A stretch of DNA of 63,923 nt, filler included, from Reclinomonas americana ATCC 50394 (lineage: Eukaryota), in NCBI GenBank assembly GCA_048213135.1. It is 16 parts of 16 records of this genome, joined end to end, with 100 filler letters (N's around TTAATTAATTAA, not from the genome) between each part and the next. Parts side by side here need not be neighbours in the genome. Positions count along the whole stretch, not along the records: positions 30,324 to 37,946 come from AFZH01020626.1; 15 more parts are not named here. One strand, given 5' to 3'. A program made the translations under genes and the position numbers. Below, one piece after another: positions 14,151-39,643 of the stretch (position 1 is the first letter of the stretch; each line of letters starts with the position of its first letter). The notes beneath the pieces are model-generated. The model saw only the letters and a program-made list of their open reading frames with translations, made no database searches and was not told the DNA's origin.

Positions 14151-14207
14151 CGATGGGGAGTGAGAAAGCGGACAAGAATTGAGCGGTGTGTCCTGCTTTC
14201 GACGTGA

Positions 14208-16769
14208 ATGGCCTTGGCGGGCAATGTGGACCACGAGTGTCTGCTGACATGGGAGAACCAGCTGGAGCTGCAGCACGACCCGGCGGCTCTGGCGCGCTCG
14301 GGTCGATCCAAGCTGACTGCAAAGATGTGAGTTGGGTGCGAGACTGACTGTTGACAGACATTCCGAACTCTCACCGAAGGACAGTGTGCTGCCGATCGCC
14401 GTGACTGTTGTGCTGGTGGTGCTGGTGATGCACTTCTTGTTGCGCAAGCACGAGATCATGCGGGCACGTTCTCGGTGGATGTTGTGGGCGCAGGTTGGTG
14501 TGTGTGTGCATTGATGACAGGAATGATCGCCTGGCGATGTTCGGATTTCTTGGTGTTGATATCCTTCTTTGCTTGCGCTTCCGTGCAGGCCATGTTTGCA
14601 TTGGGTGCCCTTATTGCTCGACTGGTGACGGCGACGGGATTTGTGGCCGGCGGGCAACTGCACCAGCTGTCACCGACTGCAATTGTTCGTGGTGCTCTCT
14701 CTCTCTCACACACACACACTCACCTGCTGCACTGCACCATGCCACGCCTCGTTGTTCACAGTGTGCATGCGATCGCTGTGTTGTACAGTGGGGCGAACTG
14801 ATTCCTTTCTTGGTCTTCATTCCGCTGGTGTTGGTCATCCCAATTGTGAGTCGTCGTCTGCCGCTCGCCGCATGTCTGCCGTGCACAGCTCTCACTTGTT
14901 GTTGTTGTTTGCAGCTGAGGGCGTTGAGTATGCAAGCGGTGTGGAGCTGATGTTTGTCACGCGTGTTGCTGATTTTCACGCTTTTGTTTGATGCAGAGTG
15001 CGCCTGTGGATAGTCTTTGATGCCGGCCGAGTGCGAGCACAAAGGAGACTATCACTGGTCAGTCTCACCAAGGCTATCGATGGTGGAGCGGAAGCCGAGA
15101 ATATGAATGCAAACACCGCAGTGGTGGCCCGTCTACGTCGTGCGCGAGCGTGGAGGTGGGTTGAGGGTGCGACGAGTTGTGATGCTCATCGAGCGGTGAC
15201 TTAATGACCACCGCTGCGTGCAGCGAGGGGCGCTTCCTGTTGATACTCGCCGGCTTGACTGTCGCGCTCACCATCATGTACGTCCTCGTGTTGGCCGTGG
15301 CCATTGGACCGTTCGTTTCGTTGCATGCCAGCGCGTGTGCGTGTGTGTGTGCATGTGTGTACCTCTCACGCCCTTCATGCACGAATAAGGTACCGATGCC
15401 CACCGAGAGCGAGGAGCAGACTGATATTGTGGCATTTGAGCGCGATGTTCTAGCCTGGTGTCCATTCTTCCACGCGGCCGCCACGAGTGAGAGTAACACA
15501 GTCGTAGCCAGTGCATACACGATTGTCACTCTGAGCGCGGGATACCTGTTGGTGCGCGCTGCAAGAGCATTGCTTGCTGTCTCCCAAGATGGCTGACATG
15601 TGCGTGCGACCTCAGTGTGCCTGGCTCATTCGCGGCGTGCGAGATGTGTTTTCGAACCGTATTGAGTTGCGTGAATGCGCCGACACATAATATCTCATGC
15701 AGGTTGTGACTGACTGTCATGATGCGCGTGTGTTGCTGCTGCACACTGCAGGCTGCTGGTGAACGCGATATTCAGCGTGCCGCTCAGTCTCACAGCCGCC
15801 ATATTGAGTCTGGTCGACTACAAGAAGCTTGTCGTTGGTCCTTTGCAGGTGGCGACCGATGTGATGATGCCGACATTGATTTGTGTGCATGTACTGGTGC
15901 CGATTGTGCTTCCACTGCTGCGACTACGTGCGTGGAACGCGACCCTCAAGGGGTTTTCTCGCGCACGCGAGGGCAGTCAACTCGGCGCAAGTTTGATGGA
16001 CGCGTCGACGACGCAGTTTGAGTACGTGATGAGCACGTCGGAGGCGCGGGAGCAGTTTCGACAGTTGCGCAGCGTACTTGCGAGGCACTGATCGATGAAT
16101 GCACTCACAGTTGTGTTGTGTAGGTATCTGGTCGGCGAGTTCAGGTGCGCACTCTGCCTAGATCTGTGTGCAATGTGCCGTCGTTCCTCAAAAAAGAGCA
16201 TGCTTGCCTCTCAGTGTGGAAAATCTCACATTCATGGACGCCATTGATAAACTCCGTGAGGTGAGGTCTCGTGCAACGCAGCGCAAGTCGCCACTGTCGC
16301 TCTCTCTTTCTCTGCTTCTCGTGTCCTCAGAGAGCACGACATTGCAGATGCCGTCGGCTTCGCGGTCAGCTGCCGATGTTCACCGACACGCGCACGCCAT
16401 GTACGAGGAGTACCTGAAAGAGAATGGTGGAACCCTGATGTGCACCAGCGTTGATGCTGCCCATTCAGTTGCTGACTGCTCGTTACGTGCTCACCAGGCA
16501 TCAGCGAACTGAACTTGTCGGGTGGCATTCTGTTGCGTATTCGACAGGCGTTCGAGGGTGCTCATCAGCCACAGACGTCTCCCACTGAGGGAGTGACTGC
16601 CGTCGTGGAGAGCTACCTGTCGCTCTTTGATGGGGCCGTGAAGAGTGTCATGAGAACGTTGCGTGCCGACAGCTTCCCGCGCTTCGTGGCCAGCCAGGCG
16701 TGGCAGCAGTGGTCATCCGGACATACTGAAATGGTGCGACTTGTGGCGGAGAACGGACTGGTTGGCTGA
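14208..16769 (+). CDS. 7TM-RGS protein (seven transmembrane helices fused to a C-terminal RGS domain), multi-exon
   Basis: Seven hydrophobic segments with IMRARS after TM1 and RGVRDVFSNRIEL before TM6. RGS box FRQYLVGEFSVENLTF...YEEYL...ELNLS...LFDGAVKSVMRTLRADSFPRF. Confidence 0.82.
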
Positions 16770-18339: not shown

Positions 18340-21300
18340 TCATGCAACACTGCCCTCTCCCCGCCGCTGCGCCGCCGCCAACGCCACAATCTCATCACGC
18401 AACGCCTCCGCACTCACCGCCTCCTCGCGCACGGCATTATCGTCGCGAGTGCGCACCGACACACGTCCCTCGGCGGCCTCACGGTCGCCGACCACTGCAA
18501 TGTAGTTGAATTGGAGGAGTTGGGCGCGACGGATGCGCTTGCCAAGTGTCTCGGCCGACGAGTCGACCTCCACGTGCAGGCCCGACGAGTGCAGCAGCTG
18601 TTCGACGGCGTGGCACTGTGCCATGTGTGCGTCGTTGGCTTGCGAGACGGGGAGGATGGCGACTTGGCGTGGGCTGATCCAGACGGGCCAGCGGCCGCTG
18701 GTGTGCTCGATGAGGATGGCCATGAAGCGTTCGACACTGCCGAGGATCGCGCGGTGGATCATGACGGGGCGGCGGAGGGAGCCGTCGCGGTCTTGGTAGG
18801 TGAGGTCGAAGCGGGAGGGCAACTACAGGGGAAGGGAAATTAGGGGAAGGGTGAGGGGGAAGGGGGTGAGGAGGGAAGGGGTGAGGAGGGAAGGGGTGAG
18901 GAGGGAAGGGGTGAGGAGGGAAGGGGTGAGGAGGGAAGGGGTGAGGAGGGAAGGGGTGAGGACGGAAGGGAGTGAGGAGGGAAGGGGTGAGGAGGGAAGG
19001 GGTGAGGACGGAAGGGATGAGGAGGGAAGGGGTGAGGAGGGAGGGGGTGAGGAGGGAAGANNNNNNNNNNNNNNNNNNNNNNNNNNNNNNNNNNNNNNNN
19101 NNNNTTAATTAATTAANNNNNNNNNNNNNNNNNNNNNNNNNNNNNNNNNNNNNNNNNNNNTCTCTCTCGCGCGCGCGCACTTAATCATCATCCCTCCGTC
19201 GATATCTTTGTTTGCCTACTTCCGTCTCTCAGTCCATTCGCGTTCTCCCTCTGTCGATATCTCTGTTTGCCTCCTTCCTTCTCTCAGTTCCCCTCAGTAT
19301 TCGCGTTCTCTCCCTTGAGCTTCTCAGTATCGCACTCTCTCTCTCTCTCTCTCTCTCTCTCACCTGGAAATCCAACTGCACGGTCGCACACTGGTGCTCC
19401 CTCTGCAGCGCATCCCGCACGATAATGTCGATTTTCGGCCCGTAAAACGCTCCGTCGCCCGGGTTGAGGGTCCACGAGAGACCCGAGTTCTCCAGGCACG
19501 ACTGCAGCGCCTTTTCCGCACGATCCCACACCTCCAGCGAGCCGACGTAGTGATCGGGGCGGGTGGAGAAGCGGGCGCTGATCGACATGCCAAACACGTG
19601 GTACAGGTGGCGCACGAAATCGATGCAGTCGGCAATCTCGCCGCCAATCTGCTCCTCGGCGCAGAAAATGTGCGCGTCGTCCTGTCGGAAGAGGCGCAGG
19701 CGCGTGAGGCCGCCGAGGGCGCCACTGGCCTCGTTGCTGCGGCAGGGGGAAGTTGGAGAAGGGAGGTAAGGGAGGGGGGAAAGGGTGTGTGAGAGGAGAG
19801 AGAGAGGGAGAGAGAGAAAAGAGGGGGAGGAGTCAAGAGTGAAGGAGGAGCAGGGAGAGAAGGAGGGAGTGAAGAGCGAGGTGAGGAATGGAGGAAAGGG
19901 GTGGGAGGAGTGGGGTGCGATGAGTTGGGATGGGGTGCAAGGGAAGTGAAAGTAAGGACGGGAATAGTCAGGGATGGGAGTGAGAGATTTAGAAGAGGGG
20001 GAGGAGATGGAGGGAGAGTGGAGAAGAGGTAGGGCAGAGGAGAGGGAGGAAAAGGGGGAGGAGGGAGGGGAGGAAAGGGGTGAGAGGAGTGGAATGGGAT
20101 GGGGAAACAAACACTGGTACTCACCGATGCAAGGGGCTAAAGTCGGCCCATCGCACAGGCAGGTCGCGGTACGACCAGCTGCGGCTCTGGAAGAGCAGGC
20201 AGTGGCCGGGGCAGTTCATGGGTTTCAGACCCATTTCCGCCTCGTGGTCGTGCGGGTGGGAGTGGGAGCAGGCTTCGGTGGTGGTGGGTGGCGTGGTGAA
20301 GGAGCTGACACGGAACATGTTTTCGCGGTAGTTTTCCCAGTGGCCGGAGGTTTGCCAGACCTGTGGGAGGGAGATGAGGGGGACATGAGGGGAAGAGGGA
20401 TAGCGGGGAAGGGGGAAAGGGGGGAAGGTGGAAGGAGGGGGAAGGAGGGGAAGGAGAGGAGAGAGGAGAGGAGAGGAGAGGAGAGGAGAGGAGANNNNNN
20501 NNNNNNNNNNNNNNNNNNNNNNNNNNNNNNNNNNNNNNTTAATTAATTAANNNNNNNNNNNNNNNNNNNNNNNNNNNNNNNNNNNNNNNNNNNNAGGAGA
20601 AAAGAGATGAACGAACGAGAAACGAAGAGACGACGAGAGGAGAGGGAAAGAGAAGAGAGTGGTTGAGAAAGAGAAAGAAGAGAATATAAGAAGAGGAGAG
20701 AAACATGATGAGAAGAGGAGAGACAAGAGATGAGATGCGAATAGACAAGAGATGAGACGAGGAGTGAAGAGAAGAGAGAACTGAACAGAAGAGAAGAGAA
20801 GACAGGAGACTGGAAGACTAGGAGAAGAGAAGAGAAGAAAGAGAAAAAGAGCTGAGAAGAAGAGAAGAGAAGAAGACAAAATTGGGAAAGGAGAGGAGAC
20901 AAGAGATGAGAGAAGATGAGAAGAGACGAGAGAAGATGTGAACAGAACAGAAATGGAGGGAAATGAAAGAGACAAGAAAAAGCAATGAATATGAGGGACG
21001 CGAGGGGACGGAGAGCATTACAGGGGCAAGACACGGGAAAGGGGAATAAATGGACTGAGAAAGTGAGAGACAACAGCTGGAACAAGATGGAGAGAATGCA
21101 CGATTCGCGAGAGCAGTCAATTCGTTGACCACAGCGAGAACTTGAGGCAGAGCTTCCCTCCCCTCACCTCCTTGTTGAAAACCAGCGGCGACATGACCTC
21201 CTGATAACCCCTCGCGCGACATTGCTGCGAATGAAATTCATGAGCAACAACAACACCATCTCCTCGATCTCCATTACAAGCCATGGGGTACCTCGCGCAC

Positions 21301-24300
21301 AAAATCCTCCAGTCTTCGATAGATTCGCGTGCCGTGGGGCGCAAAGAACGCCGAGCCTGGTGAGGCTGGGTGGAAGAAGAAGAGATTCTGCGCCTTGCCG
21401 ACCACGCGGTGGTCGGCCTTGGCACGTTCCTCGCGCAGTTTTTGCCAGTCTTTGAGTTGGGCGGTGGAGGGGAAGGCCACACCGTAGACGCGTTGGACTT
21501 TGGTGCCGTTCTGCGAGGGAGAGAGAGGGAGAAGGGGATGGGGGAAAGGCGGAATGAGGGAGAGGGAGAGGGAAGGGGCAGGGAGAGGGAGAGAGAAGAA
21601 GAGAGAGGAAAGGACAAAAGAAGGGAGGGAAAGAGGAGAGAGGCTGAGAAGAAAGAGATAAGAGAGGCGACGAGATGAAAAGAAAGATATGAGATGTGAC
21701 GTTTGAGTGGGAGATGGAAGAGAGGACGACGAGTGAGAGAGGGAAGAGAGGATGGCGAGTGGGAGAGGGAAGAGAGGGCGACGAGTGGGAGAGGGAAGAG
21801 AGGACGATGAGTGGGAGAGGGAAGAGAGGACGGTGAGTGGGAGAGAGGGAAGAGAGAACGATGAGTGGGAGAGGGAAGAGAGGATGAGAGGGGGAGAGAG
21901 GACGGTGAGTGAGAGAGAGATGAAAAGAAAAGATAAGAGATGTGACGTTTGAGTGGAGATGGAAGAGAGGACGACGAGTGGGAGAGGGAAGAGAGGATGG
22001 CGAGTGGGAGAGGGAAGAGAGGACTGCGAGGGGGAGAGAGGAGGAGAGGATGGAGTGAGAGAGGGAAGAGAGGACGGTGAGTGGGAGAGGGAAGAGAGGA
22101 TGAGAGGGGGAGAGAGGTCGGTGAGTGAGAGATGAAAAGAAAAGATAAGAGATGTGACGTTTGAGTGGGAGATAGAGAGAGGACGACGAGTGTGAGAGGG
22201 AAGAGAGGATGGCGAGTGACAGAGGGAAGAGAGGATGACGAGTGGGAGAGGGAAGAGAGGACGATGAGTGGGAGAGGGAAGAGAGGACGATGAGTAACAG
22301 AGGGAAGAGAGGACGAGGAGTGGGAGAGGGAAGAGAGGACAGTGAGGGGGAGAGGGAAGAGAGGACGATGAGTGGGAGAGGGAAGAGAGGACGATGATGG
22401 AGGCAGGGAAGAGAGGACGATGAATGGGAGAGGGAAGAGAGGACATTGGGGAAAGAAGGACGAGGAGTGAGAAAGAATGGGAGAGGATGCGCGGCCAAGG
22501 GAAGTGAACAGAACGAGAGAGCATGTGTGACAGGGATTACGAAAAGCGATGTGAGGAGTGAGGGATACGCGCGATCTATATCCTCTCTCCCATCCCCCCT
22601 CTCTTTTCTCTCTCTCTCTCTCATGCTCCTCGTCCTCTCTTCCCTCTCTCGCATTCAAACCTCACTCTCTCATTCTGTCTCGCTTTCCCCACCATCTGTC
22701 ACGCACGCTCTCTCCTTCTGGCCTCTCCTCCCTCTCCCCTTCTACCCTCCCAACTCACCAGCGGTCCCGCATCATGCCACTGCACCTCCGACACCCGGGT
22801 CACCGCAAACGCCTTGACGGCGTCGGCCGAGTGCAGGTGCGGACCGCGGCACAAGTCGATCAGGGTGCCGCTGCGGTAGAGCGTCACCTGCTCGGTGGCG
22901 GGGATGCGATCGATCATGGCCAGCTTGAAGGGGTTGTAGGCGAAGAGCTCGCGGGCGAACTCGCGCGACACGAGCATGCGCTCGAAGACCTTGCCGGACT
23001 TTTGGCGGAGAAAGTCGGCGATGTGCTGTTCGAGGGCGCGCATGTCGTCCTCGTGGATGGTGGTATGGGGGGCGGGGAGTTGCACGTCGTAGAAGAATTC
23101 GCCTTCGCGGAGGGGTGGGCCGTCGCAGAGGAGGGCGCCGGGGAAGTGGTGTTCGAGTGACTGCACAAAGGGGAAGGGTGATGAGAAGGGGAAGGGGGAT
23201 AAAAGGGGAAGGGGGATAAAAGGGGAAGGGGGAGGGCAAGGTCAGCCTTTTTTGCAACGAGAATCAGCGCGAGAGAACAGGACTCCAAAGAAGCGGCAGG
23301 GATCAACGCGACAAGGAATGAGAGTGCTCTCACACACACTCAGAACGCAAGTCTACAACATACAGCCCTCCTTCTCTCGCTGACAAGTATGCAGCAACTG
23401 CATACCGCTGCCTCTTCACCCTCAGATTGCACGTCTGCAGCGCAAACATCCCTCTCTCCAAGCTCCAGAACGCAAATCTACAATGCAAACAAGGCGCTCT
23501 CTCCACATCCCACTCACTGTAACAAGTCTGCAGCACAACGAAGTCACTATCACTCCAATACTCAGGACGCCAGCCCACCTCCTCTGAATCCCGTTCAAGG
23601 CACGTCTGCAGCGCCAGCAACGCACACTCCTTCCCATTTCTTCATCCTTCTCTGAATCACAAAGCAAGTCTGCACTACAAAAGGCGATCTCTCCACATCC
23701 CTCTCACCAAATCGAGTCTGCAGCAANNNNNNNNNNNNNNNNNNNNNNNNNNNNNNNNNNNNNNNNNNNNTTAATTAATTAANNNNNNNNNNNNNNNNNN
23801 NNNNNNNNNNNNNNNNNNNNNNNNNNCTACAAAGCGCTGTCTCTCCAACACTCAGAATGCAAGCCTACAATACACAGCCCTCATTCTCTGCATCCCTCTC
23901 ACCATGACAAATCTGCAGCAAGCGCTGTCTCTTCTCTGACTCAGATTGCACGTCTGCAGCGCAAACATGTTCTCCCTCTCTCCAAATCCCAGAACGCAAG
24001 TCTGCAATGCACACAAGGCGCTCTCTCCACATCCCTCTCACCAAAACAAGTCTGCAGCAATTACAAAAAGCGCTGTCTCTCCAACATTCAGAATGCGTCT
24101 ACAATGTAGCCCTCCTTCTCTGCATCCCTCTCACCGTGACAAATCTGCAGCAACTGCATAGCGCTGTCTCTTCTCTGACTTAGATTGCACGTCTGCAGCG
24201 CAAACATGTTCCCTCTCGCCATTCCTCTCTCCAAGCTCCAGAACGCTAGGCTACAATGCAAACAAGGCGCTCTCTCGACATCCCTCTCTCCCTGACAAGT

Positions 24301-27379: not shown

Positions 27380-28070
27380 GAGGTAGAAGTGCGCTGTTTC
27401 TGTAGGATGTTGTGCCACCCTTTGCAAGCGCGTTTCTTCCTTGCTGAGGCGAGTTTGTGCAAGTACTAGTGGGCGTGACTTCGCGGTTCACTGCGCGTCC
27501 AGGTCGCGATCGACGAAACTGGAGCTCTGAAGGCAAGCGACGGGTGCGTTGTTCGTGTAGGTAGTGGTGCCACACACTGCAGTCGCGTTTCCACCTTTCC
27601 GAGGCGAATTCGGATCATTTTTCGAATTCGCGAGTGGGAGTGACTTCGCGGTTCACACAGGGTCGAGATCGTCGAATGCGGGGCTCTGAAGGCGAGCGAT
27701 GGATGCGTTGATTCTATAGGCGATGGTTCTGTACATTGCAGTTGCGTGTCTCACTGCTGGAGGCGAATACAGAGCAAGTGGGAGTGACTTCGAGGTTCAC
27801 AGCGAGCTAAGCTCGTAAAATGCGGGGCTTCATATGCGAGTTATAGGTGCGCTGTTCCTGTAGGATGTTGTGTCACCCAGTGTTGCAAGTGCGTGTCTCC
27901 CTCTCTGAGAGCATTTTTCGCGAGTGGGAGTGACTTCGAGGCTCACAGAGGGTCGAGATCGTCGAATGCGGCGCTTCATATGCGAGTTATAGGTGCGTTG
28001 TTTCTGTAGGTTGTGGCGCCTCACACTGCAGTTGCGTGTCTCCCTGTTGGAGGCGAATTAGGTGCAAATA
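27380..28070. repeat. Degenerate ~145-165-bp tandem satellite (4-5 units), intergenic
   Basis: Anchor AGTGGGAGTGACTTCGMGGYTCAC at 27468 (one mismatch), 27633, 27777 and 27923, with shared downstream blocks (GGTCGAGATCGTCGAATGCGG, CACTGCAGTTGCGTGTCTC, GAGGCGAAT). Confidence 0.8.
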
Positions 28071-28261
28071 CCGACCTCACGACGTCGCAGTTGTCTCCTT
28101 CACTTCCGATCACAATTCCAAGCCGCAGACACGGTGAAGCTCAGTAGCTCTGCTCGACATGCTGCATCCTCTCTCACTGTCAGCGCCTCACTGCTGTTCA
28201 AAAACGTCGCAGGACAATTCTCGTTTCCGCATCTCACTCTCTTCCAAGCAGTGAGCACACG

Positions 28262-30176
28262 ATGTCAGGAGGAGGTAGTGGAGGAGGAGGAGGAGGAGGA
28301 GGCACAGGAGCTCGCGCGCGCTGCTCCTTCCGCCTGCACCAATTCGCGCACGAATATGCGCAAGTGTGGCGTCGCGTGCCACCACTGATTGTCGCCTGCG
28401 CGGCCTCGCTGGCCACGGTCTACATAACGCTTTGTGTAGGGGAGAGAGCGCGGGCGAGGGCGGTGTTGGTGCAGCGGTTGAGATGGTGAGAGGGGGCGAA
28501 GAGAGTGAGAGAGAGAATGAGAGGTTATTCTGAGCGGACACGCGTGCTTGAGAGAGTGGAGAGAGAAGGGAAGAGAGAGAGAGAGAGAGAGAGAGAGAAG
28601 GAGGAGGCAAGGAGAAGGAGGAGAGAGAGAAGGAAGGGGAAGGGAAAGGAGAGAGAAAGAGAGAGTCCGTGTTCGGATTTGTCAGTCTTTCTCTCTCTCT
28701 TCTCTCTCTTCTCTCTCTTCTCCAACCCTCTCCTCTACTCCTCTCTCTTCTCCGTCTCTGCCATTCTCCTCTCTCTCGTCTCGAGATTACACTGTGTTCT
28801 GCCCTTCTCTGACTTGTCTCTCCTCTTCTCCTCTTCTCCTCTTCTCCTCTCCTCTCTCTCATCTCTCTCTCTTCTTTCTTTTCTCTCTCTTCTCTGCCTA
28901 TCTCCATCCCTCTCCTCCCTCCTCTGCCTCCTCTAGCTCCTCTCTCTCTTCTCTCTATTCCTTTTATCTCTTCTCTCTCTTCTGTGCCTATTTCCAACCC
29001 TCTCCTCTTCTCCTCTTCTCTCTCTTCTGTCTCCTCTGTCCCCTCTGTCCCCTCTGTCTCCTCTGTCTCCTCTCTCTTCTCTCTCCTCTCGACATACACT
29101 GTGTGTTCTACCATTCGCCGACTTGTCTCTCCGCCTCCTGTTTACTCTGACTCTTTAGCATTGACTGTTTCTGCCTCCTCTCTCTCTCTCTCAATCCTCT
29201 TCTCTGCCAGTCTCTTCTCTCTTCTCTCCCCTCTCTCTTCTAAGTTCTCCACTCCGTCTCCCACTTGTCACTTCACCTCCTCCTGCTCTCTCCGACTCCT
29301 CATCAATTGAATGTTTCCGGCCTCTCTCCCTCCGCAGGTGCATCTCACTGACCATTCTGCTCCTCCTATGCCTGGTCGACTTGTCTTCACTGCTCGTCGA
29401 TGTGCTTCTCCGCGGTCGGCGATCCGCGGCCAACGTCGGTGGTGGCGGAGCACAAGGAGGCGATCACCGACTGCTGCGTGGCGATGCGGAGGATGCCGCG
29501 CATGGTACGAGTGTCTCTTGCCCCTCTGCATATCAGTCGGTGTCAGTCTCCCTCTCAGTGGGATTGAGGTAGAAGAGAGACAGAGTGACCGACAGAGAGA
29601 CTGACAGAGAGACTGACAGAGAGACTGACAGAGAGAGAGAGAGACTGGAGTGATTGTGAGAGAGGGACTGGAGAGATTGTGAGAGGGACACTGAGAGGGA
29701 CACTGAGAGAAAGAGAGACAGACAAGACTATTAGAGACTTCGCGAAACTGATTAAGAGGAGAGAAGGAGAGAGAATGAGAAAGACTGGGATAGAGACTCA
29801 GTCTCTTCGAGTCTTGTCTGTTTCTCTCACAGCCTCTCTCCCAGTCTATCTCAGTCTCTATCTCAGTCTCTCTCTGTCAGTCTCTCTGTGTTTCTCACAG
29901 TCTTTCTCTCTCAGTCTCTCTCTGTCGCTCTCTCCCAGTCTCTCTCAGTTTCTCTCGCTCTCTACCACAGTTTCAGTCAGTCTCTGTCAGGTGCTCAGTC
30001 TTTCTCAGTCTTTCTCAGTTTTTCTCGCTCTCTTAGTGTCACTCTGTCACTGTCAGGTGCTCAGTCTTTCTCAGTTTTTCTCGCTCTCTTAGTGTCACTC
30101 TGTCACTGTCAGTCACTCAGTCTCTCTCGATATCGCTCATTTGCTCTCTCAATCTCTCTCAGTCAGTCGCTCTCTC

Positions 30177-30223
<47 letters not shown>

Positions 30224-32229
30224 NNNNNNNNNNNNNNNNNNNNNNNNNNNNNNNNNNNNNNNNNNNNTTAATTAATTAANNNNNNNNNNNNNNNNNNNNN
30301 NNNNNNNNNNNNNNNNNNNNNNNGCCAGCGCAGCCACCACCACATCATCATCACCAGCATGTGCAGCAACAGGCAGGGCCTGCGGGTGTTGGTGCGGCGG
30401 CGGCGGCGGCGGCTCCCGGTGGTGTGCAGTTCCTTGCGGGGCACGACGATGTGCAGCGGTTTGTGGTGATGCAGCAGTTGTTGAGGTTGCTGGCGGAGGG
30501 GCAGCAACAGCAGCAGCAGCAGCAGCAGCAAATGGTGAGTGGGGTTGGTGTGAGGAGATGGCGTAGGCGATGTGCCGCTGAGTGTTCATCGTCTTTTCTG
30601 TGTTGTCTCTCGCTCTCTGTGCGAGTGTGCGTGTGCGTGAGAGAGGGAGAGTATCGCTTTCATGCACTGCCGCAAACGTGGTTATTTCTGGTTGACAGTG
30701 TCTCATTGGATATCTCTCGTCCACTATTCTTTCTTGTGCACCCCACTCGCGATGTGTTGCTCTCTCTCTCAAATACTCAGAAACGATCTCTTTCGGGCAC
30801 TTTCATTCTCGTTGCTGTGTTTTTTCTTTGTTTGTCTCTCCCCTCTCTCTTTATTGTTTCTCTTCTCCTCTCTGATTGCTCCCGTCTCGTGCTATTCAAA
30901 GGCTCTCCTTCTGTCTCTGTCGGACGATCCCCGTGCTGCGTCGCTGTGATGCTCTGATGCAGTGACCTGTTCCGCCGTTTCTTCGTTCCTCTGTTGCTCC
31001 AATTTTTTCGGGCATTCTGATTCTTTTGTTGGGCTTCTTTCACTGGGATGCAGTGACCTTCCACCATTTCTTCGTTCCTCTGCTGCGCACATTTTATCGG
31101 GTACTTTGATTCTTTTGTTGGGCTTCTTTCACTGGGATGCAGTGACCTGTTCCACCATTTCTTCGTTCATCTGCTGCTCACATTTTATCGGGTACTTTGA
31201 CTCTTTGCTGGCCTTCTTTCGCTGGGATGCAGTGACCTGTTCCACCATTTCTTCGTTCCTCTGCTGCGCTGTCATGAACACCCAGAAGCGATTTCCGTGT
31301 ACTGATCACTTTTCCTTCTTTCTCTCTGCGTCTCTCAGATTTTCTTTCTCTCTCTATGTTTCTCTCAGACTTTCTTTCTTTCTGAGTCTCTCTTTCTCTC
31401 TGTCTCTCTCTGTCCCTCTCAGTCTATCTTTTCCTCACTCTGTTTCTCCCAGACTTTCTTTTTTTCTTCTCTCTTTCTCTCTCTCTCTCTCTCTTACTCT
31501 TTGTGTTCCTTCATAGTTCGCGCGCACTCTGGCAGTCACGAATTGTTCCTGTGTTCTTTTGCCCTCTCTCTTTCTTTCTTGCTTCATTGCTCTCTCACTG
31601 TCGCTCTCCCCCGGTCTCTTTCTGTTCCTCGCTCGTGTCGCTCTCCCCCGTACTCTGTCTGTTCTTCGTTCGTGTCACTCTTCTCCCCGGTCATTTCATT
31701 TAATCTCAGCTTCCTTCCCCTTGTTCTCTTCTCTCACAGGGCCGCCACGCACACGACCCACTGGCCCTCGGCGGCCTGCTCGCGGCACTTCACCAACAGC
31801 AACAGCAGCAAGCACCCGGCATGTTCATCGCCAGACCGCACGCCCGCTCGCCGCTGCCGCGCCACTTGTTGCGACAGTTGCCGGTGTTCGAGTGTCATGC
31901 AGCGAATTTGCCTGCCGATCATCAGTCGTGCGAGATTTGTTTGGGGCCGTATGAGGAGGGCGAGATGTTGAGGACGTTGCCGTGCATGTTGCGTGGGGTG
32001 GTGGTGGGAATGGGCAAGGGAGTGATGGGTGCTTTGGGGCTTATGATTGTGGAGCAGGCATTTTTATCATCAAGAGTGCGTCGATGAATGGTTGACGACG
32101 CGCGATCGGTCGTGTCCGCTGTGTAAGGTGCGGGGGGAAGGGTGTGTGTGTGTGTGTGGGAGTGTGTGGAAGGGGGACTCATGGGTGGGGGTGGTGTAGG
32201 ATAAAATCACACTGGAGCCCAGTGAGTGA
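28262..32229 (+). CDS. Membrane-associated RING-H2 E3 ubiquitin ligase, multi-exon across gap
   Basis: Two N-terminal hydrophobic segments, a Q-rich linker, then spliced CEICLGPYEEGEMLRTLPCMHFYHQECVDEWLTTRDRSCPLCK. The 3' end is approximate. Confidence 0.8.
30950..31270. repeat. ~90-bp tandem repeat x4 in a RING gene intron
   Basis: GATGCAGTGACCT recurs at 30956, 31047, 31136 and 31226. Confidence 0.85.
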
Positions 32230-32403
32230 GTGAGGGAGGAATCAATGTATATTTTCATGAAAATAGATGTCGGTCAATACAGTTATGAACAGCGATGGCT
32301 TGTAACTGAGTTCACAGATAAATGCGACTAATATACAAAGTATAGAATTTCTTCGCAAATAAAGTAGTGCGGATCTCTGCTGAGGTCGCCACCAGCCTGC
32401 TCA

Positions 32404-35400
32404 CTACGACGGCCCAGCAGAAGGCGCACTTACTGCGGCTAGCGTTCCCGCAGTCTCACAAAGCCGCCTCAACTCGTCGTGCACGTACGATGCCGACACA
32501 CGTGTCGCTTGTGGCCTCTGAGTCACACGAATGGTGAGTGTGCTGATCACCATTTCCAATTGCTAGACCAGCCGCACGCAACCCAGCACTGTCGAATGAG
32601 ACTGCGAATGTCTTCCGGCACTGTTGCCCTTACAGCTTCGTCGTCAAGATTGCCAGGTGGGATGCCATCGTGCATGTGGCGCATGATTGCGGCCAGCGCC
32701 ACCCCGGTGAACGGTTCCCGACGAGTGGCGATGAACCAAAGCAGCGAACCGAGTCCGTACACATCTGCTCGTTCATCGTACTGCATATTGCGGAAGAAGG
32801 GTGAGAAATCCAGAGCCACTCTTACTTGTTCCACATTTGTGTGACAGTCGTGAGCGCACCTCTTGATCCAACATGGCCTCGGGTGCAGCGTACGCCGCCG
32901 TGCCGTGATTCGACTGCATCTTCCCGAGAGTGCCGTGAATCCTGGCCTCCCCAAAGTCGCACACCTTGGCCACAAGTCGGTCCTCGCTAATGAGAATGTC
33001 TGTGGGCATGCAGAAGGTAGCAGAGTCAGCAGTGAGAAAGAATTGCACAGCGACAGACCTGGAAGATGTCTCCACTGCTCTCTCTCTCTCTCACACCTAA
33101 TTGGCTCACATTCTCTCTCATTCTCGCTTTCTCGAATCAAGATATTATAATCCTCATTTCTTGCAGTCTCAGTTTCACCCATCATTCAACCCATGACGCA
33201 ACTCTGCGGCTTGAGATCTCGATGCACCACTCTACGTGAGTGCATGTGCACCACTGCCGATGCCACTTGTTCGAGCAGACAAAGCAGGCCTAGAGTTGCC
33301 ATATGCTCATCCTTCACCAGGTCGTGCAGCGTCTCGGCAATGCCATCCTCGTCTTCATGACCAACGTATGCAAGAACAAGACCGAGACCACTTGGGTCGT
33401 CTTCGCACACAGCCATCAGTTTCACAATGTGTGGGTGACTGTGTGCGGATGCACGTGAGCGGTGGCAGTCAGTATTCAAGCGCAGTAATCATGAATGTAC
33501 GCAACTCCAGTTGCATCAACAGAGAGTGCTCGTTCTCGAAACTCTCGTGAATGCGTTTCCAGTCCGCCGATTGTGCATCTCGAGCTTGCGGCCTGACCAG
33601 GTATCGCTTGTATGCCACAATTTGCGATACCCCACCAACATGGAGCGTGGCACGGGAAACAGCATTTTGACCTGCAAATGAATGTAGATGCAATGAGCTT
33701 GAAATTGATGGTGAGCATAGTCCTCAAGAAAAAGAGCAGAGATCACACCGATGGCAATTTGCCTCGCAGGCGACAGGACAGAGAAAGACACTGTAGGTGC
33801 GCGCATGGCGAGTCTGGCTGCTCTGGCTGTCACCAACTGGGCCGTCACATCGATGTGACATACATCTATGCCAAAGGAGAATGATATGAGAAAATGTACG
33901 CGTCAATTGGCACGTGAAGACGCAACTGTCGTATGCTTGAAAAAGACGACAGATGCTCTCGTGTCCGTCGGGGAACAGCGTGTGCAGTGAGTCGCGGACT
34001 AGCCGCATGACGCTCACATACTCTGCGTCTTCGAGGGCAGAGAGACGGGCCAAGTGAGAGACGCGGTGACGCACATGTCGCAGGTTCTCCACTGCTTGAA
34101 TCTGCAAAAAGCACAGAGAAAAATATGATCCCCATAGATGATGATGATGCAACAGCAGAGCATACCTTGGTGGAGTCGGCGAGGAGTTGCACCGCGAGTC
34201 GGTCCCTGTTTGCGGCTGGATCCATACGGACGAGGCTCTCCAGCAGGTCCACATCACGACATTCAGCGGCAGGAACGAATGTTGTGTACAGCAGCAGAGT
34301 GCTCAGCAGTGACACGTCCATGCCGGTTGTTTCTCCACTTCGCTTGAACTCGCGGATTGCCTCGTAGTTGGAGGGGAAAAGCTCGACGGAGCGCATGCGA
34401 ATGTTGCCACGCTTGTCCAGAGTCATTCGGCAGTATCTGTGGGGCAACAATGAGAACAAAGGACACAACCAAGCACAGAGAGAATAAGATCCAGTACCTC
34501 GGTGGTGGAGCTGGGAAGCACAGCTGCTCAATGTCAAATTCGCCAGGGAAAAACTCAACGACGAGTTGTTGCAGGAGGGAGCCAAGTGCCAGTGGAATGA
34601 TTTCGTGAACGACTTCGGTGAGCATGAGGATAGGGCGGCGGTCGCTGGGTGTTTGACAACGAGTGAGTAGGATCACAAGACACCACACGCAACAAAATGG
34701 GGGTGGACAAACCTGAGAAAGTCCATGTGGAAGAGGGCGCGCAGCTGGCCTTCCACCTCGTCGACTCTATGTTGCAACTGGACGCGGTCTGCGATAGCCG
34801 CATGAAGTTGACCCGCATAAAGGGAATTCTTCTCCCGCTCTGTGGCAAGAGTGTGTTCCAACTGGTCAATGAGCTGACGAAGCTGGACCACAGTGCTTTC
34901 GTTCTCTCGGCGCTTCCGATCCCACTCTTGCTGTTGCCACTCTCGCTCTTGATTTGCTGCGTCGAGCTCGCGTTGGAGTTGAGCGACAATGGCCGCATGC
35001 GCAGCATCCGACTGCATTTCCGGCGAGCGATCAGCGACGGTGAAAGAACATGGATCTGAGGAATACCAAAAGGCGAATTAACTCACCTGATACACTGTGC
35101 CAGCTGGGACAGCAAGCGCGTCGAACAGGTCAGTCAAGGTTCAAGCCAACAATGTACAATACTGGATTGAAGATGTCGAATACAGATCTAACGTACCTGC
35201 AGAAAAAGACACCGGGAGCGGCATCTGATCTTGCTGCGACTGAAGAAGTGGCGCCTGTACAGCGATGTGGTCAAGCAACTCGGCTACTTGCTGCTTGCCG
35301 TTGCCGCGGGCTAAATGAGCTGCGGTCCTCCCAGCCTTGTCGACAAGGGGTATGAAATCGGGATAGCGAGTGGCAAGGAGTCGCACAATGGCTTCATGGC

Positions 35401-37474
35401 CATTCGCGGCTGCAAAATGCATAGCTGTGCAGCGTGAATGCCTCGCACTGTCGTTTGTGACCGCCCACACCATCTCCGGTGGACATCGTCGCTCATCGGC
35501 AAGCAACCACTCCACAACGTGAAGTCGCCCCCAGCTGGCAGACGTCATGAGCGAAGTCCAGCCGCCATCAGTGACTAATCGCGCGAGTTGTGGCCCCACG
35601 CCACTCTCTTCCCACAAATACGTCAACACAAGGAGGTGACCTCTGTAAGCGGCCCAGTAAAACGACGAGCCGCCGCCATCGCCCATCTCCTCTCTGCGCA
35701 GCAGAACATGCGCGCCCTCGCGCGCCACCAAGCCGCGAAGCGCCTCCACGTCTCCATCTCCTGCCATTTCGCACGCCTTCTTCCTCTGCTGCTGAGGAAG
35801 AGAGCTTGCGGTACCGGGGGCTACATTGGCGACTGCTACACACGAGAATAATAAATGAGAACTTCGCATAGTACGAAACTAGCACAACAGATGCACATAA
35901 AGGAACTGGGATAGCATCAACACGCACCTCCAGATTGCATTTGTTGTGATAACTGTTCCACTTCATGTGGAAGCGACTGTGGAGCAAGGAGTTCAATTAA
36001 TTCGGCCACTCGTTGAATGCCAAATTCTCGTGTCCACTGGGATGCCGTTTTGCCAGCCTTATTAGCCATCGGGATGAGGTCTGGAAAGCGAGCGGCGAGA
36101 AGCTGTACAATGGCCTCATGCCCCCAAATAGCAGCATAATGTAACACAGTGGATTGAGGATGGTTGGAGCGACCATTGGTGACAGCGAGCACCATTTCCG
36201 GCGGACATCGTCGTCCATCGGCAAGCATCCACCCCACCACCTGCAGATGCCCGTTGCTTGCTGCAATCATAAGTGGTGTCGTATTCCAATCGGATACCAT
36301 CAGAGCAAGTTGTGACCCCACACCACTCTCCTCCCACAAATACTCCAACACGGGCAGATGGCCTTTCCACGCAGCACAGTAATATGCAGAACAGCCGAGC
36401 TCGTCCATCTCTTCTCTCTTCAGTAAAACGCGCGCGCCCTCGTGCGCCGTCAACTCGCGCAATCCCCTGACGTCACCGTCAAGAGCTACTTGCCACGCTG
36501 CCTTCCGACGTTGCGGCGGCGGAGACCTTGCTGCAAGCGTGGAGAAACAATTACGTATACAACACACCTTGATTGGACTTTGCACTTCAGAACGACGCAC
36601 CTTCTAGTAGAAGCGACTGTGGAGACAGAACGAAACCTGGCTGTGGCTGTTGTTGACGTGGTGGTAATGACTGTGCCGCGCGGATGGCGAGCACGTCGGC
36701 CGCATGTCCGTTGCCGATGTTTCGTGCCCACTCAGCCGCCGTCATGCCAACCTTGTTGACAATGGGAATGAGGTGGGGGAAGCGAGTGGCGAGGATTCGC
36801 ACAATGGCTACGTGGCCGTTCATCGCAGCATAATGAAGCGCAGTGGAATGTGGATTGCCGTCTCGATCATTTGTAACCGCCCGCACCATCGCCGTCGGAC
36901 ATCGTCGCTCATCAGCCAGCAGCCACTCCACCACTTGCAAATGCCCATTATTGGCAGCCGCTATCAGCGGCGTCCAGCCAGAGTCGGTGACCATTTGCGC
37001 GAGTTGTGGCCCGACACCACTTCCCTCCCACAGATACTCCAACACGGAGAGATGTCCTTCGCGAGCGGCAAAACAGAATGCCGAGCTTCCATTCACATCC
37101 ATTTCCTCCCTGAGCAGCAGAGTCTGTGCGCCCTCACTCGCCACCAACTCGCGCAGCGCCTTCACATCTGGAACCCAAGCCAAGTACCACGCCTTCTGTC
37201 TCTGATGTGCTGGCGGAGGCAGTGGCGGCAATGGGAGTGGCAGTGGCACTAGCGGCGGCGGTGGTGGTGGTGGTGGCGGTGGTGGCGGTGGAGGAGGAGG
37301 AGGCGGTAAAGCACTGAGCACATCACAGAAAAACTCAGACGCACAGCACAGCACAATGTCCATTTTTCATCAGACAGACCTGTCGTCTTCACCGCCGCCC
37401 GCTGCGCCATCTTGCGCGGCATCCACCCTCTGCACGAAGAAATAGTTCACGGCACTGTGAAACGCGGAACCCAT
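32404..37474 (-). CDS. Ankyrin-repeat (three tandem modules) / coiled-coil / HEPN (DZIP3-like, RxxxxH) / TKL-like protein kinase fusion
   Basis: In-frame GT-AG splicing from ATG 37474 (MGSAFHS...) to TAG 32404: poly-P, three ankyrin exons, a coiled coil, MDVSLLSTLLLY...AVENLRHVRHRVSH...YVSVMRLVRDSL, then kinase VAYK, HPHIVKL, HRDLKPQN, DFG, GTAAYAAPE, DVYGLG, LIRQCW. Confidence 0.82.
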
Positions 37475-37588
37475 TGCGCGCTCGGAACACAAAGACTATC
37501 TGACAGGACAATCCATGCAGTGACTCATCGCACGCAGACGTTGTATTGACTCTTCAGCCAAGGCACGTCTCTACTCTCCCCCTGCACA

Positions 37589-39643
37589 ATGCCAAAGAAA
37601 GGAAAGAAGGGAAAGGTGCGTCTTACTCTCTCCTCCTTCTCCGCTCCCCCTCTCACTCTTCTTCACAGGGCAAGAAGGCCAAGGAGGTCGAGGTGTACAA
37701 CTCGCCCTTCCTGCTCCCACCCGGACTGGACGAGGCCAAAGCGCTGTTTGAGACAGCGGAGCGCATTGTGACACTGCATCTGCGATTGGTCACGGTGAGA
37801 GAGAAGGAGAGAAGAGGGAGAGAGAGAGAGAGGAGGGCAAAGGGAGAGGATAAGAGAGCAAGAGAGAGAAGGGTACCAGGAGAGAGCGCAGGGCGATGGG
37901 GCTGAGATGAAGGGACAATCATCCTGTGAATGATCGCGATCAAGGCNNNNNNNNNNNNNNNNNNNNNNNNNNNNNNNNNNNNNNNNNNNNTTAATTAATT
38001 AANNNNNNNNNNNNNNNNNNNNNNNNNNNNNNNNNNNNNNNNNNNNCATAGAGAGAGAGAGAGAGAGAGTAAGGCAGGGAGAGTGAACATCACAACGAGG
38101 GACACATCTTAGAACTGCGAGATCACCTTCTGCTGATTGCGACTTTCCCTGTCCCTCACCCACCCTCCCCCTCTCACCCAGTGGCACTTCCTCGACTTCG
38201 ACGCCTTCCTCCCCGTCAGCGCCAACCTCCGCGTCGTGCAAGAAATCATCTCACAACACCACTCGGGCGCCGTCGGCCAAATGACGCTGTGGAAGGCGCA
38301 GGTGCACCCGAAGAACGTGCTCAAGGATCACTTGCGCACCCTGGAGGACATTTTTAAGTTCTCCGAGCAGTCGTCTGGAGGTGAGTCGGGAAGGGGGGGA
38401 GGAAGGGGGAAAGGGAGAGGGAAACGGAGAGCGATAGGGGAAGAGATGTGGAGAGTTATCGTCGAGCAAGGGTAGAGGGTGGAGGGAGACACTGATCACA
38501 CGCACACACCGATCAAGGGTTGAGGGGTGGAGAGAGACACTGATTGCACGCACACACCGATCAAGGGTCAAGGGGTGGAGAGAGACACTGATTGCACACA
38601 CACATCGATCAACGGTCGAGGGGTGGAGTGAGAAACTGATCACACGCACACATCGATCAAGGGTAGAGGGTGGAGGAAAGACACTGATTGCACACTGACC
38701 AAGGGATAAGAGTGGAGAGACATTGATTGCACACGCGCACACCGATCTTTATCGCTTTTCGTGGGTCGTCCCTAAAATATTTTGGGCTTTCAACCCTTGA
38801 TGTCGAGGGTTGAATCGAGAGGGTCGAGGGTCCATTCCCGAGGGTTGAGGGTCGTTCCTTGGGGGTCACGGGTTGCTGTCTACTTCTCATCTTCACCAAC
38901 GACACGCAATTCGGTCAATGGCGCACAAGGGTGAAAGGGGAATAGACCACGCAGGGTTGAGGCTGGAGGAAGAGTTGAGATTCGATGGAGACACAAGTCG
39001 CATGCACGTCTATCTTCTTCTCATTCCGTGGGCCGTCCCTAAAATATTTTCCTATTTAACCCTTGCTGTCGAGGGTTGAATCGAGAGGGTCGATGGTCAT
39101 GGTCAGAGGGTTGAGGGTCTTTCCTTCGGGGTCAAGGGTTCTGTCTGTTTCCCATCTTCACCAACTACACGCACTTTGGCTGATAGTACACGAAGCACAG
39201 ACCACGCAGGGTTGAGATTGGTGGAAAGGAAGAGTTGAGGTTGGATGGAGACGCAAGTCACACGCACATCTATCTGTATTGCTTTCCGTGGGCCGTCCCT
39301 AAAATATTTTGGCCTTTCAACCCTTGCTGTCGAGGGTTGAAGACAGAGGGTCAAGGGTTATGGTCAGAGGGTTGAGGGTCTTGCCTTGAGGGTCGGGGGT
39401 TGCTGCCCTTTGTGAGGATTGAGGGAGAGATTGGTCCGTAAACATTTTATTACACTGTTGCCTCACCGCCGCCGCCTCTGCAGACGAGATGCCGGAGAAA
39501 CTCGAGTGCACCATCTTTTACGACTTCCAGCCCGTGGCACCCGACTGTCCACTGCTGCTGTCAAGGTACACTGCGCAAACGGCTCTGCAAGCTGACTTTC
39601 TCTTTCCTGTTCAACTGCCCTGCATTCATTCTTTTTCAGGCTG
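37589..39643 (+). CDS. Small protein with Lys-rich N-terminus and possible ubiquitin-like fold, multi-exon
   Basis: MPKKGKKGK|GKKAKE...VTLHLRLVT|WHFLDF...IISQHHSGAVGQMTLWK...PKNVL...|...TIFYDFQPVAPDCPLLL. The fold is inferred and the 3' end is uncertain. Confidence 0.55.
38470..39400. repeat. Intronic tandem repeats (~48 bp x6, then ~265 bp x3) rich in GAGGGT
   Basis: GGGTGGAGAGAGACACTGATTGCACGCACACACCGATCAAGGGT units, then GTGGGYCGTCCCTAAAATATTT near 38761, 39028 and 39288. Confidence 0.8.

Follow-up and report, generated by a model that had tools for sequence, protein, structure and literature searches.

Three tandem ankyrin-domain exons ahead of a kinase domain in Reclinomonas americana, probably the product of an old exon triplication

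In the jakobid Reclinomonas americana, three tandem exons, each corresponding to one complete, capped ankyrin (ANK) domain, lie ahead of a Ser/Thr kinase domain, and an old exon triplication has probably provided this kinase with three docking domains of different specificity. The window, that is, the whole stretch of DNA that was analysed (63,923 nt), consists of contigs concatenated via N44-TTAATTAATTAA-N44 linkers. The predicted product would start with a proline-rich stretch, continue with three five-repeat ANK domains that fold independently and are connected through short P/Q-rich linkers, and end with a coiled coil, ∼245 aa without a family match, and the kinase. Under the favored history, a single phase 1-1 exon would have been duplicated in tandem twice to form the three ANK domains; these duplications would be old, with purifying selection since then on the residues that determine the fold and on the unusual extended inter-repeat loops, and the residues of the concave face would meanwhile have changed by drift or by re-specification. 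In consequence, the kinase would most likely bear three docking surfaces that differ in the partners or substrates they select, and the coiled coil would add dimerisation. Read in this way, the locus is a clean textbook instance of tandem exon duplication at the level of whole domains, in a little-sampled branch of the eukaryotes, ordinary in other respects, and a natural counterpart of engineered multi-DARPin fusions; its importance would be greater if transcripts showed cassette use or genomes a large, fast-evolving family of modules.

Gene model and domain order

The three ANK blocks are each open in one minus-strand frame only, at 36637-37313 (exon M1), 35928-36530 (M2), and 35197-35832 (M3), and when the modules were searched one by one against the window with tblastn, these three places and no others were recovered, at 57-59% identity along 180-195 aa and well outside chance expectation (E between 1.6e-60 and 4e-65), as had been proposed in a preliminary description that assigned one module to each exon. 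A gene model was built around them by hand, with exon borders set by open frames and GT-AG sites alone; it comprises 15 exons and 14 GT-AG introns, and its reading frame stays open for 1,296 codons. Under this model, the exons for the ANK and kinase parts would form one gene of ∼1,300 codons with predicted splice sites, all on the minus strand.

The putative first coding exon, E0 (37380-37474; 95 nt), begins MGSAFHS, ends in phase 2, and keeps the frame of the hand model uninterrupted, while an alternative start ATG at 37363 lies unspliced and in frame inside the putative 66-nt intron. A divergent gene on the plus strand begins ∼115 bp from this exon. Exon M1 (677 nt) encodes a poly-proline stretch and then five-repeat ANK module 1, and a second phase-1 donor at 36601 may extend it. 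Exon M2 (603 nt) encodes a short P/Q/R-rich linker followed by module 2, and M3 (636 nt) a linker followed by module 3. M2, M3, and the following exon all start in phase 1, which makes M2 and M3 symmetric 1-1 exons, so that skipping either would leave the frame intact; on this point the phases under the predicted borders agree with what had been claimed for these two exons. Phase symmetry is a requirement of any in-frame exon duplicate. The introns after M1, M2, and M3 (106, 95, and 93 nt) gave no convincing alignment to one another.

Downstream of the modules, a putative 17-nt micro-exon (35087-35103), placed on a splice path found to hold the frame open, would link M3, in phase 1, with the coiled-coil exon, in phase 0. 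The latter (34713-35011, ∼100 aa) is assigned from its Q/E/R-rich, heptad-like composition, and Pfam coiled-coil families matched it only weakly and below threshold (E 6e-4 to 1e-2). Four further exons (34498-34644, 34166-34436, 33900-34101, and 33749-33865), joined in an open frame via GT-AG introns, encode ∼245 aa, and their translations matched no Pfam family at E ≤ 0.1. Kinase exons K1 to K4 follow at 33506-33671, 33203-33438, 32860-32999, and 32583-32780 within segment 32404-33671, and the kinase tail exon K5, from 32517, either ends by read-through at a TAG (32404-32406) or splices on at a GTAAGT preceded by GCA (32433). The one DNA run listed contributed a single 312-nt contig, which corresponds to 32613-32924 with no differences, outside the ANK exons. 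In Pfam scans that covered the three ANK exons, the coiled-coil exon, the four further exons, and K1 to K4, all matches were to ANK, to kinase, or, weakly, to coiled-coil families, and no NACHT or NB-ARC (NOD) domain was found.

The kinase domain was recognized by Pkinase (PF00069) in exon K2 at 40.0 bits (cut-off 31.7) and in the K2-containing ORF at 42.3 bits, and K2, K3, and K4 are collinear on that profile (positions 57-127, 129-169, and 174-244). The conceptual translation contains VAYK, HRDLKPQN, DFG, and APE. The sequence of its Gly loop, at an exon junction placed by hand, is G-Q-N-A-V-S, with two of the three canonical glycines missing, which suggests either that the X4/K1 junction is mis-set or that the kinase is atypical. 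An ANK docking region and a kinase occur on the same polypeptide in TNNI3K (coiled coil, ANK, kinase), ILK, and ANKK1/RIPK4, and the architecture here is alike, predicted coiled coil included, except that those proteins carry one continuous ANK stack rather than three separate capped domains. No specific sequence relationship to TNNI3K, ILK, or ANKK1/RIPK4 was found, the kinase exon matching generic Ser/Thr kinases only (IRE1, Snf1, CDPK, NEK; E ∼1e-5).

The ankyrin module and its relatives

The exon ORFs of M1, M2, and M3 scored 71.7, 87.3, and 60.3 bits against Pfam Ank_2 (PF12796; cut-off 27.3) and 62.8, 49.8, and 47.8 bits against Ank (PF00023; cut-off 21.1). An AlphaFold2 model of module 1 (pLDDT 93.7, pTM 0.88) contains five helix pairs, with short extra helices in the loops and disordered last residues. 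With Foldseek, its best matches were five-repeat DARPins (TM ∼0.8-0.88, target-normalised; rmsd 2-3 Å), and among the PDB matches listed, every one was a DARPin, a DARPin fusion, or another ANK protein obtained by design or engineering (E ∼1e-7). The module profile likewise scored highest in the PDB against triple-DARPin fusions (5lec, 5le2, and 5leb; 183-187 bits in three stretches). Each module is predicted with confidence to be a self-contained five-repeat ANK domain of DARPin size. Like N3C DARPins, on which they superpose, the modules are capped five-repeat domains, but they are natural rather than designed, and their inter-repeat loops, extended by 4-10 residues and containing short additional helices, are conserved instead of variable. 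Unlike the DARPin-DARPin-DARPin fusions, in which rigid helices join the units, the modules are predicted to sit on flexible low-complexity linkers.

Relatives of the module are few. Among 187 hit proteins retained from a HMMER pass over 1.84 billion representative proteins, just two, P0020 and P0070, contain the loop motif of the family. P0020, the one close relative, is an EST-derived ORF of R. americana itself, which shows that the organism transcribes one or more modules of this kind; it represents a fourth type of module, whose concave residues differ again. P0070 is 41-48% identical to the modules and retains the extended loops. A profile search among proteins of near-module length (8,000 candidates) gave 32 proteins at E ≤ 1e-10, led by P0070 (501 bits) and P0020 (300 bits), and the next match was a generic one at 112 bits. 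When longer proteins were searched with M2 by word index, the seven matches at E ≤ 1e-3 among 1,019 candidates were all generic ANK proteins (27-39% identity), and the 64 loci from a metagenome scan with the module profile were likewise treated as generic ANK (25-44% identity in the best segment; E 1e-10 or weaker). A threonyl-tRNA synthetase exon, used as a guide to taxonomy, reached at best 68% identity among the 120 hits listed, so that no proteome close to this organism is represented there. Full-text literature searches found no paper on this gene and none linking R. americana to nuclear ankyrin genes. The modules define a small ANK subfamily, marked by its conserved extended loops (RRCPxxMVxAVTN) and hardly represented in present databases.

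Divergence among the modules and among unrelated ankyrin repeats

Pairwise protein identities of the modules are 111/195, 112/203, and 109/200 (55-57%), with 64-69% identity in DNA. The shared frameworks that had been reported (YLWExSGVGxQLA, WxLADxRRCPxxMVxAVTN, and AIVxxLAxRxPxxIP) are present, as are the variable stretches AAREGH/AAWKGH/AAYRGH, AANNGH/AASNGH/SASWGR, and AAMNGH/AAIWGH/AAANGH and the loops DRDGNPH/GRSNHPQ/DSARHSR; to call the frameworks near identical was an overstatement, however, given the overall identity and the 76-81% identity even at core ANK positions. Whole-module dN/dS is 0.20-0.35 (with dS, at 0.86-1.6, near saturation), and 41-47% of identical residues are encoded by different codons between modules. 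Core synonymous sites have not been homogenised (core-codon dS 1.2-3.2), which indicates no concerted evolution and rules out conversion between the framework sequences. At synonymous sites, M1 and M3 are closest to each other although they are not adjacent; this closeness may stem simply from the lower GC3 of M2 (0.52, vs. 0.62-0.63 in the other modules) rather than from the order of duplication.

Divergence is unevenly distributed over the surface of the modules. In repeats A-C, identity is 0.20-0.27 at concave positions, 0.50-0.67 on the convex surface, and 0.76-0.81 in the core, whereas loops and insertions, taken over the whole module, are as conserved as the scaffold (0.66-0.71 identity, 24 of 41 columns invariant, dN 0.19-0.25); the unusual extended loops are SGVGxQLA and RRCPxxMVxAVTN. 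Within the three central repeats, 14 of the 15 columns at concave positions 2, 3, 5, 13, and 14 vary and 7 of the 15 differ in all three modules, compared with 7 of 12 variable columns on the convex surface. The modules therefore do differ most where the preliminary description had placed their differences, at positions randomised in DARPin libraries (2, 3, 5, 13, 14, and 33), although the contrast between concave and convex columns is marginal (Fisher P 0.06 and 0.08), because the columns are so few. Trp, Tyr, and Arg are frequent at the concave positions of M2 and M3. Class-specific dS was erratic and in part undefined (12-24 codons), so the dN of each class was set against gene-wide dS; concave-site dN (0.63-1.01) then gives a ratio of ∼0.4-1.0, which, with three sequences and dS near saturation, is never clearly above 1 at the proposed binding face.

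Of 32 unrelated ANK proteins, 28 showed the same order of identities among their repeats, concave below convex below core (medians 0.29, 0.43, and 0.79), and thus the pattern is no mark of a diversifying array. The concave/convex ratio of identities in the modules (0.38) is among the stronger values seen in these controls but does not leave their range (5th-25th percentile, 0.34-0.49). Variability of the concave face is the default behavior of ANK repeats, and variability at DARPin-randomised positions alone should not score as a diversifying system.

Alternative readings and known arrays

The locus had been described as a diversifying recognition array, in which cassettes under positive selection at contact residues would be skipped, shuffled, or changed in copy number to give the kinase a repertoire of targets, and this reading is now considered unlikely. 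Several features are in its favor, namely the symmetric phases of M2 and M3, the extent of variation at positions 2, 3, 5, 13, and 14, the Trp, Tyr, and Arg at the concave positions of M2 and M3, the expression in R. americana of a fourth module type with different concave residues, and a concave/convex ratio toward the strong end of the controls. Against it stand the same ordering in most unrelated ANK proteins, whole-module dN/dS well below 1, concave-site dN no higher than dS, old copies that bear no trace of homogenisation, and small numbers, with only three copies in the window and just two relatives among the representative proteins. Fungal NLR-type ANK, TPR, and WD arrays undergo concerted evolution and diversifying selection, have repeats at least ∼85% identical and polymorphic in number between isolates, and accompany a NACHT or NB-ARC domain on the same protein (Dyrka et al., 2014; PMC4986451). 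The variable ANK positions of those arrays also lie on the concave face (inner helices and the hairpin/loop region), but the modules are only 55-57% identical, their synonymous sites are saturated, and the attached domain is a kinase. In brown-alga ROCO genes each LRR has an exon of its own, and these exons are shuffled and alternatively spliced (Teng et al., 2024; PMC11378527); the genes resemble the present gene in having recognition-type units on separate tandem exons of symmetric phase that are removable in frame, and differ in that each unit of the present gene is an entire five-repeat domain, that there are only three units and no ROC-COR, and that no signature of shuffling was found. 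A bolder version, in which the exons would be splice cassettes of an expanding lineage-specific family of DARPin-sized ANK domains, skipping of M2, M3, or both would yield up to four kinase isoforms with different combinations of docking surfaces, and every duplication would be followed by an episode of positive selection that re-specified the concave faces, is very unlikely; if true, it would mean that a signalling kinase of a deep-branching eukaryote is targeted in a combinatorial way.

A different possibility, improbable but deserving more weight, is that the conserved extended loops are the functional surface and that the modules are redundant, sharing one partner for avidity or acting as spacers, while their concave positions drift neutrally. 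The conservation of loops and insertions at the level of the scaffold and their retention even in P0070 agree with this proposal, and a concave dN/dS of ∼0.4-1.0 is what neutrality would give; indeed, with concave dN similar to or below dS, the concave-face divergence fits neutral drift as well as it fits re-specification. On the other hand, all three copies have been kept intact at omega 0.2-0.35 over a dS of ∼1 or more, which argues that each is useful without implying that they bind different ligands, and the aromatic-rich concave faces of M2 and M3 resemble, if only weakly, binding surfaces more than drifted ones. Three docking domains of different specificity, retained after an old exon triplication, continue to be the preferred explanation. 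That the tandem copies are instead an assembly error or a decaying pseudogene is barely credible: the window was indeed concatenated from contigs, but the whole gene lies inside a single contig piece (30324-37946), the level of DNA identity between copies makes a duplicated or collapsed assembly error impossible, the 15 exons are open throughout, and the low omega of the modules denotes purifying selection.

The ankyrin-kinase gene model

The three ankyrin (ANK) modules, M1 (36637-37313), M2 (35928-36530) and M3 (35197-35832), lie on the minus strand with one open frame apiece and contain every string quoted for them in the preliminary description. A tblastn search of the window with each module recovered these three sites only, at 57-59% identity over 180-195 residues (E 1.6e-60 to 4e-65); the repeat is real and well past chance. 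Global pairwise protein identities among the modules were 111/195, 112/203, and 109/200, and nucleotide identity over 188 shared codons was 64-69%, so "near identical" overstated the likeness of their frameworks.

Joining 15 exons and 14 GT-AG introns on the minus strand gave 1,296 codons with zero stops. The model opens with a short putative first exon (37380-37474), a hand-joined open frame. Next come the three module exons: M1 (677 nt), with a string of prolines at its start, then M2 (603 nt) and M3 (636 nt). A 17-nt micro-exon links them to a coiled-coil-like exon of ∼100 aa with weak, sub-threshold Pfam coiled-coil matches only; the next four exons matched no Pfam family at E<=0.1. The kinase exons, K1 to K4 (33506-33671, 33203-33438, 32860-32999, and 32583-32780), lie at the 3′ end, followed by a tail exon from 32517. 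K2 scored 40 bits against the Pkinase profile (cut-off 31.7), and K2, K3, and K4 matched successive parts of the profile (positions 57-127, 129-169, and 174-244, respectively), a collinearity that lends the gene model independent support. The conceptual translation contained the kinase motifs VAYK, HRDLKPQN, DFG, and APE; the Gly loop of the putative kinase is atypical and sits at a hand-set exon junction. Database matches to the kinase exon searched were generic Ser/Thr kinases only (E ∼1e-5). In overall architecture, the model is reminiscent of proteins that combine ANK repeats with a kinase domain, among them TNNI3K and ILK.

Each end of the model has two candidates: for the start, a spliced ATG at 37474 or an in-frame unspliced ATG at 37363, and for the 3′ end, a stop codon (TAG, 32404-32406) or a splice donor (GTAAGT, 32433). 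M1 likewise has two candidate donors, at 36637 and 36601, both phase 1; the 36 nt past the former (36601-36636, minus strand) stay in frame, end at the phase-1 donor aag/gtgcgt, and share a 13-nt identical run with the M2 tail (35960-35980, minus strand), and M1 may thus be 713 nt long instead of 677 nt. At the start of M1 (37210-37313, minus strand), ∼20 prolines in a run are followed by LVPLPLPLPPLPPP, possibly a ligand stretch of the SH3, WW, or profilin type.

Predicted structure and relatives of the module

The AlphaFold2 model of M1, with a five-sequence alignment as input (mean pLDDT 93.7, pTM 0.88), showed five helix pairs, with additional short helices within three of the loops between repeats, and ended in a tail predicted to be disordered. 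All listed Foldseek matches to this model in the PDB were DARPins (designed ankyrin repeat proteins), DARPin fusions, or other designed ANK proteins, with TM scores of 0.66-0.76 when query-normalised and about 0.8-0.88 when normalised to the DARPin-sized targets, and the module sequence profile scored highest against engineered triple-DARPin fusions. Each exon thus codes for a linker and a single ANK domain that is complete, capped, and of DARPin size, and the predicted protein carries three ANK beads, not a single long solenoid.

A HMMER pass with M2 against 1.84 billion representative proteins (E<=1e-3) gave 16,343 matches, nearly all of them long multi-ANK proteins scoring via many stretches. 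Only two single-stretch matches spanned most of the module with scores that clearly exceeded those of generic ANK proteins: P0020 (154 aa, 68% identity), an ORF in EukProt that derives from an EST of the jakobid Reclinomonas americana, and P0070 (400 aa, 45% identity), from a Logan contig. These were also the only two of 187 stored proteins with the loop motif RCPxxMVxAVTN, and a profile search and a metagenome scan with the module added no relatives beyond them. Over 132 reliable columns, P0020 shared 75% of its residues with M1, 70% with M2, and 67% with M3, and its residues at the concave positions, the repeat sites randomised in DARPins, form a set of their own, unlike those of M1-M3; by sequence, it is a fourth module type and not a copy of any single one of the three.

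Divergence of the concave face

Repeats were set in the standard 33-residue register (TPLH at 6-9, AA at 11-12, GH at 15-16), in which we take positions 2, 3, 5, 13, 14, and 33 to be those randomised in DARPins. Across the three central repeats, the concave positions (2, 3, 5, 13, 14) had one invariant column in 15, pairwise identities of 0.20-0.27, and dN of 0.63-1.01; the convex helix-2 surface (18, 21, 25, 26) had five in 12, 0.50-0.67, and 0.21-0.31; and the core, comprising 14 scaffold positions (4, 6-9, 11, 12, 15-17, 19, 20, 23, 24), had 29 in 42, 0.76-0.81, and 0.12-0.15. All three modules differed mutually in 7/15 concave columns, and over the whole module the extended loops and insertions were invariant in 24 of 41 columns (identity 0.66-0.71). 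Differences were therefore concentrated at the DARPin-randomised positions, as first described, with Fisher P = 0.0004 for concave against all remaining columns, and P = 0.06 (three central repeats) or 0.08 (all five) against convex columns. The preliminary description had set evenly spread substitutions with dN/dS at or below 1 at the binding face against its own reading; the spread was uneven, and concave dN over gene-wide dS was ∼0.4-1.0, a ratio from three sequences with dS near saturation.

Whole-module NG86 dN/dS for the three pairs was 0.20, 0.35, and 0.21, with dS of 1.53, 0.86, and 1.61, respectively. Different codons were used at 41-47% of identical residues, and core-codon dS was 1.2-3.2, so conversion is not homogenising the frameworks. 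The closest-looking pair, M1 and M3, is non-adjacent, and the lower GC3 of M2 (0.52 versus 0.62-0.63 in the other modules) may be the cause.

As a control, repeats were compared within each of 32 proteins that have six or more 33-residue repeats in canonical spacing, drawn from 185 of the 187 stored search-match proteins (family members P0020 and P0070 excluded). Median identity rose from 0.29 for the concave class through 0.43 for the convex class to 0.79 for the core, the last inflated by the repeat-finding anchor, which fixes five core positions. Concave identity was below convex in 28/32, and the 5th, 25th, and 50th percentiles of the concave/convex ratio were 0.34, 0.49, and 0.69; the ANK-kinase gene, at 0.38, is on the strong side of this range yet inside it. 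Given the same ordering in the controls, concave-face divergence is the default for ANK paralogues. The preliminary observation stands; its interpretation as a diversifying recognition array is supported only in part.

Origin of the exons and surrounding sequence

On the best-supported reading, a symmetric exon encoding a complete five-repeat ANK domain was duplicated in tandem, in two steps and long ago, within a gene for a multidomain kinase. Purifying selection acts on the scaffold and unusual loops; the concave faces have diverged, probably yielding three different surfaces with a putative docking function. That the exons serve as cassettes or a repertoire seems quite improbable. M2 and M3 are indeed symmetric phase-1 exons, as originally proposed (M2, M3, and the exon after M3 all start in phase 1), but an exon can be duplicated in tandem without breaking the frame only if it is symmetric, and the symmetry is hence no evidence by itself for cassette use. 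In fungal NLR repeat arrays, between-repeat identity is ∼85% or more, repeat number is polymorphic, and concave positions are positively selected (PMC4986451); M1-M3 fall short of that identity. In brown-alga ROCO genes, each exon carries a single LRR, and the exons undergo shuffling and are alternatively spliced (PMC11378527); exon symmetry is common to both, whereas the unit in the ANK-kinase gene is a whole domain.

Introns and a G+C content of ∼55% mark the window as eukaryotic. All 15 gaps read N44-TTAATTAATTAA-N44, a six-frame stop linker (e.g., 37947-38046 and 30224-30323); the window is thus a set of concatenated contigs, which may be artificially ordered and oriented from one side of a linker to the other, and neighbourhood is readable only inside one piece. 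The ANK-kinase gene lies entirely in the piece 30324-37946. There, a divergent gene (37590-37946, plus strand), cut by the contig end, begins ∼115 bp from the putative ATG of the ANK-kinase gene. Its translation starts MPKKGKKGK, is interrupted by an intron, and resumes with GKKAKEVEVYNSPFLLPPGLDEAKALFETAERIV; a bidirectional promoter between the two genes is possible.

Elsewhere, recognisable coding pieces on the minus strand include a WD40-repeat protein (12990-14669), a threonyl-tRNA synthetase exon (19229-20215; top identity 68% among the matches listed), and a second protein-kinase fragment (6602-7312; VGTPHYMAPE). Long CT/GA-rich low-complexity tracts at 20500-22700 and 28000-32000 translate as SLSLSL or PLFPLP and are strongly strand-skewed (GC skew +0.53 and AT skew +0.47 at 20-22 kb). 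Two long plus-strand ORFs in separate contig pieces (52174-52965 and 54729-55340) have clearly alike Thr/Ser-rich repeat domains, with the pattern ...SATPATS...TYY(Y/F)RA...GSPLAVT(V/I)RS(T/F)DNGTP...FDKAFT(I/V)T(T/S)GE, and resemble extracellular modules of the cadherin- or Ig-like type.
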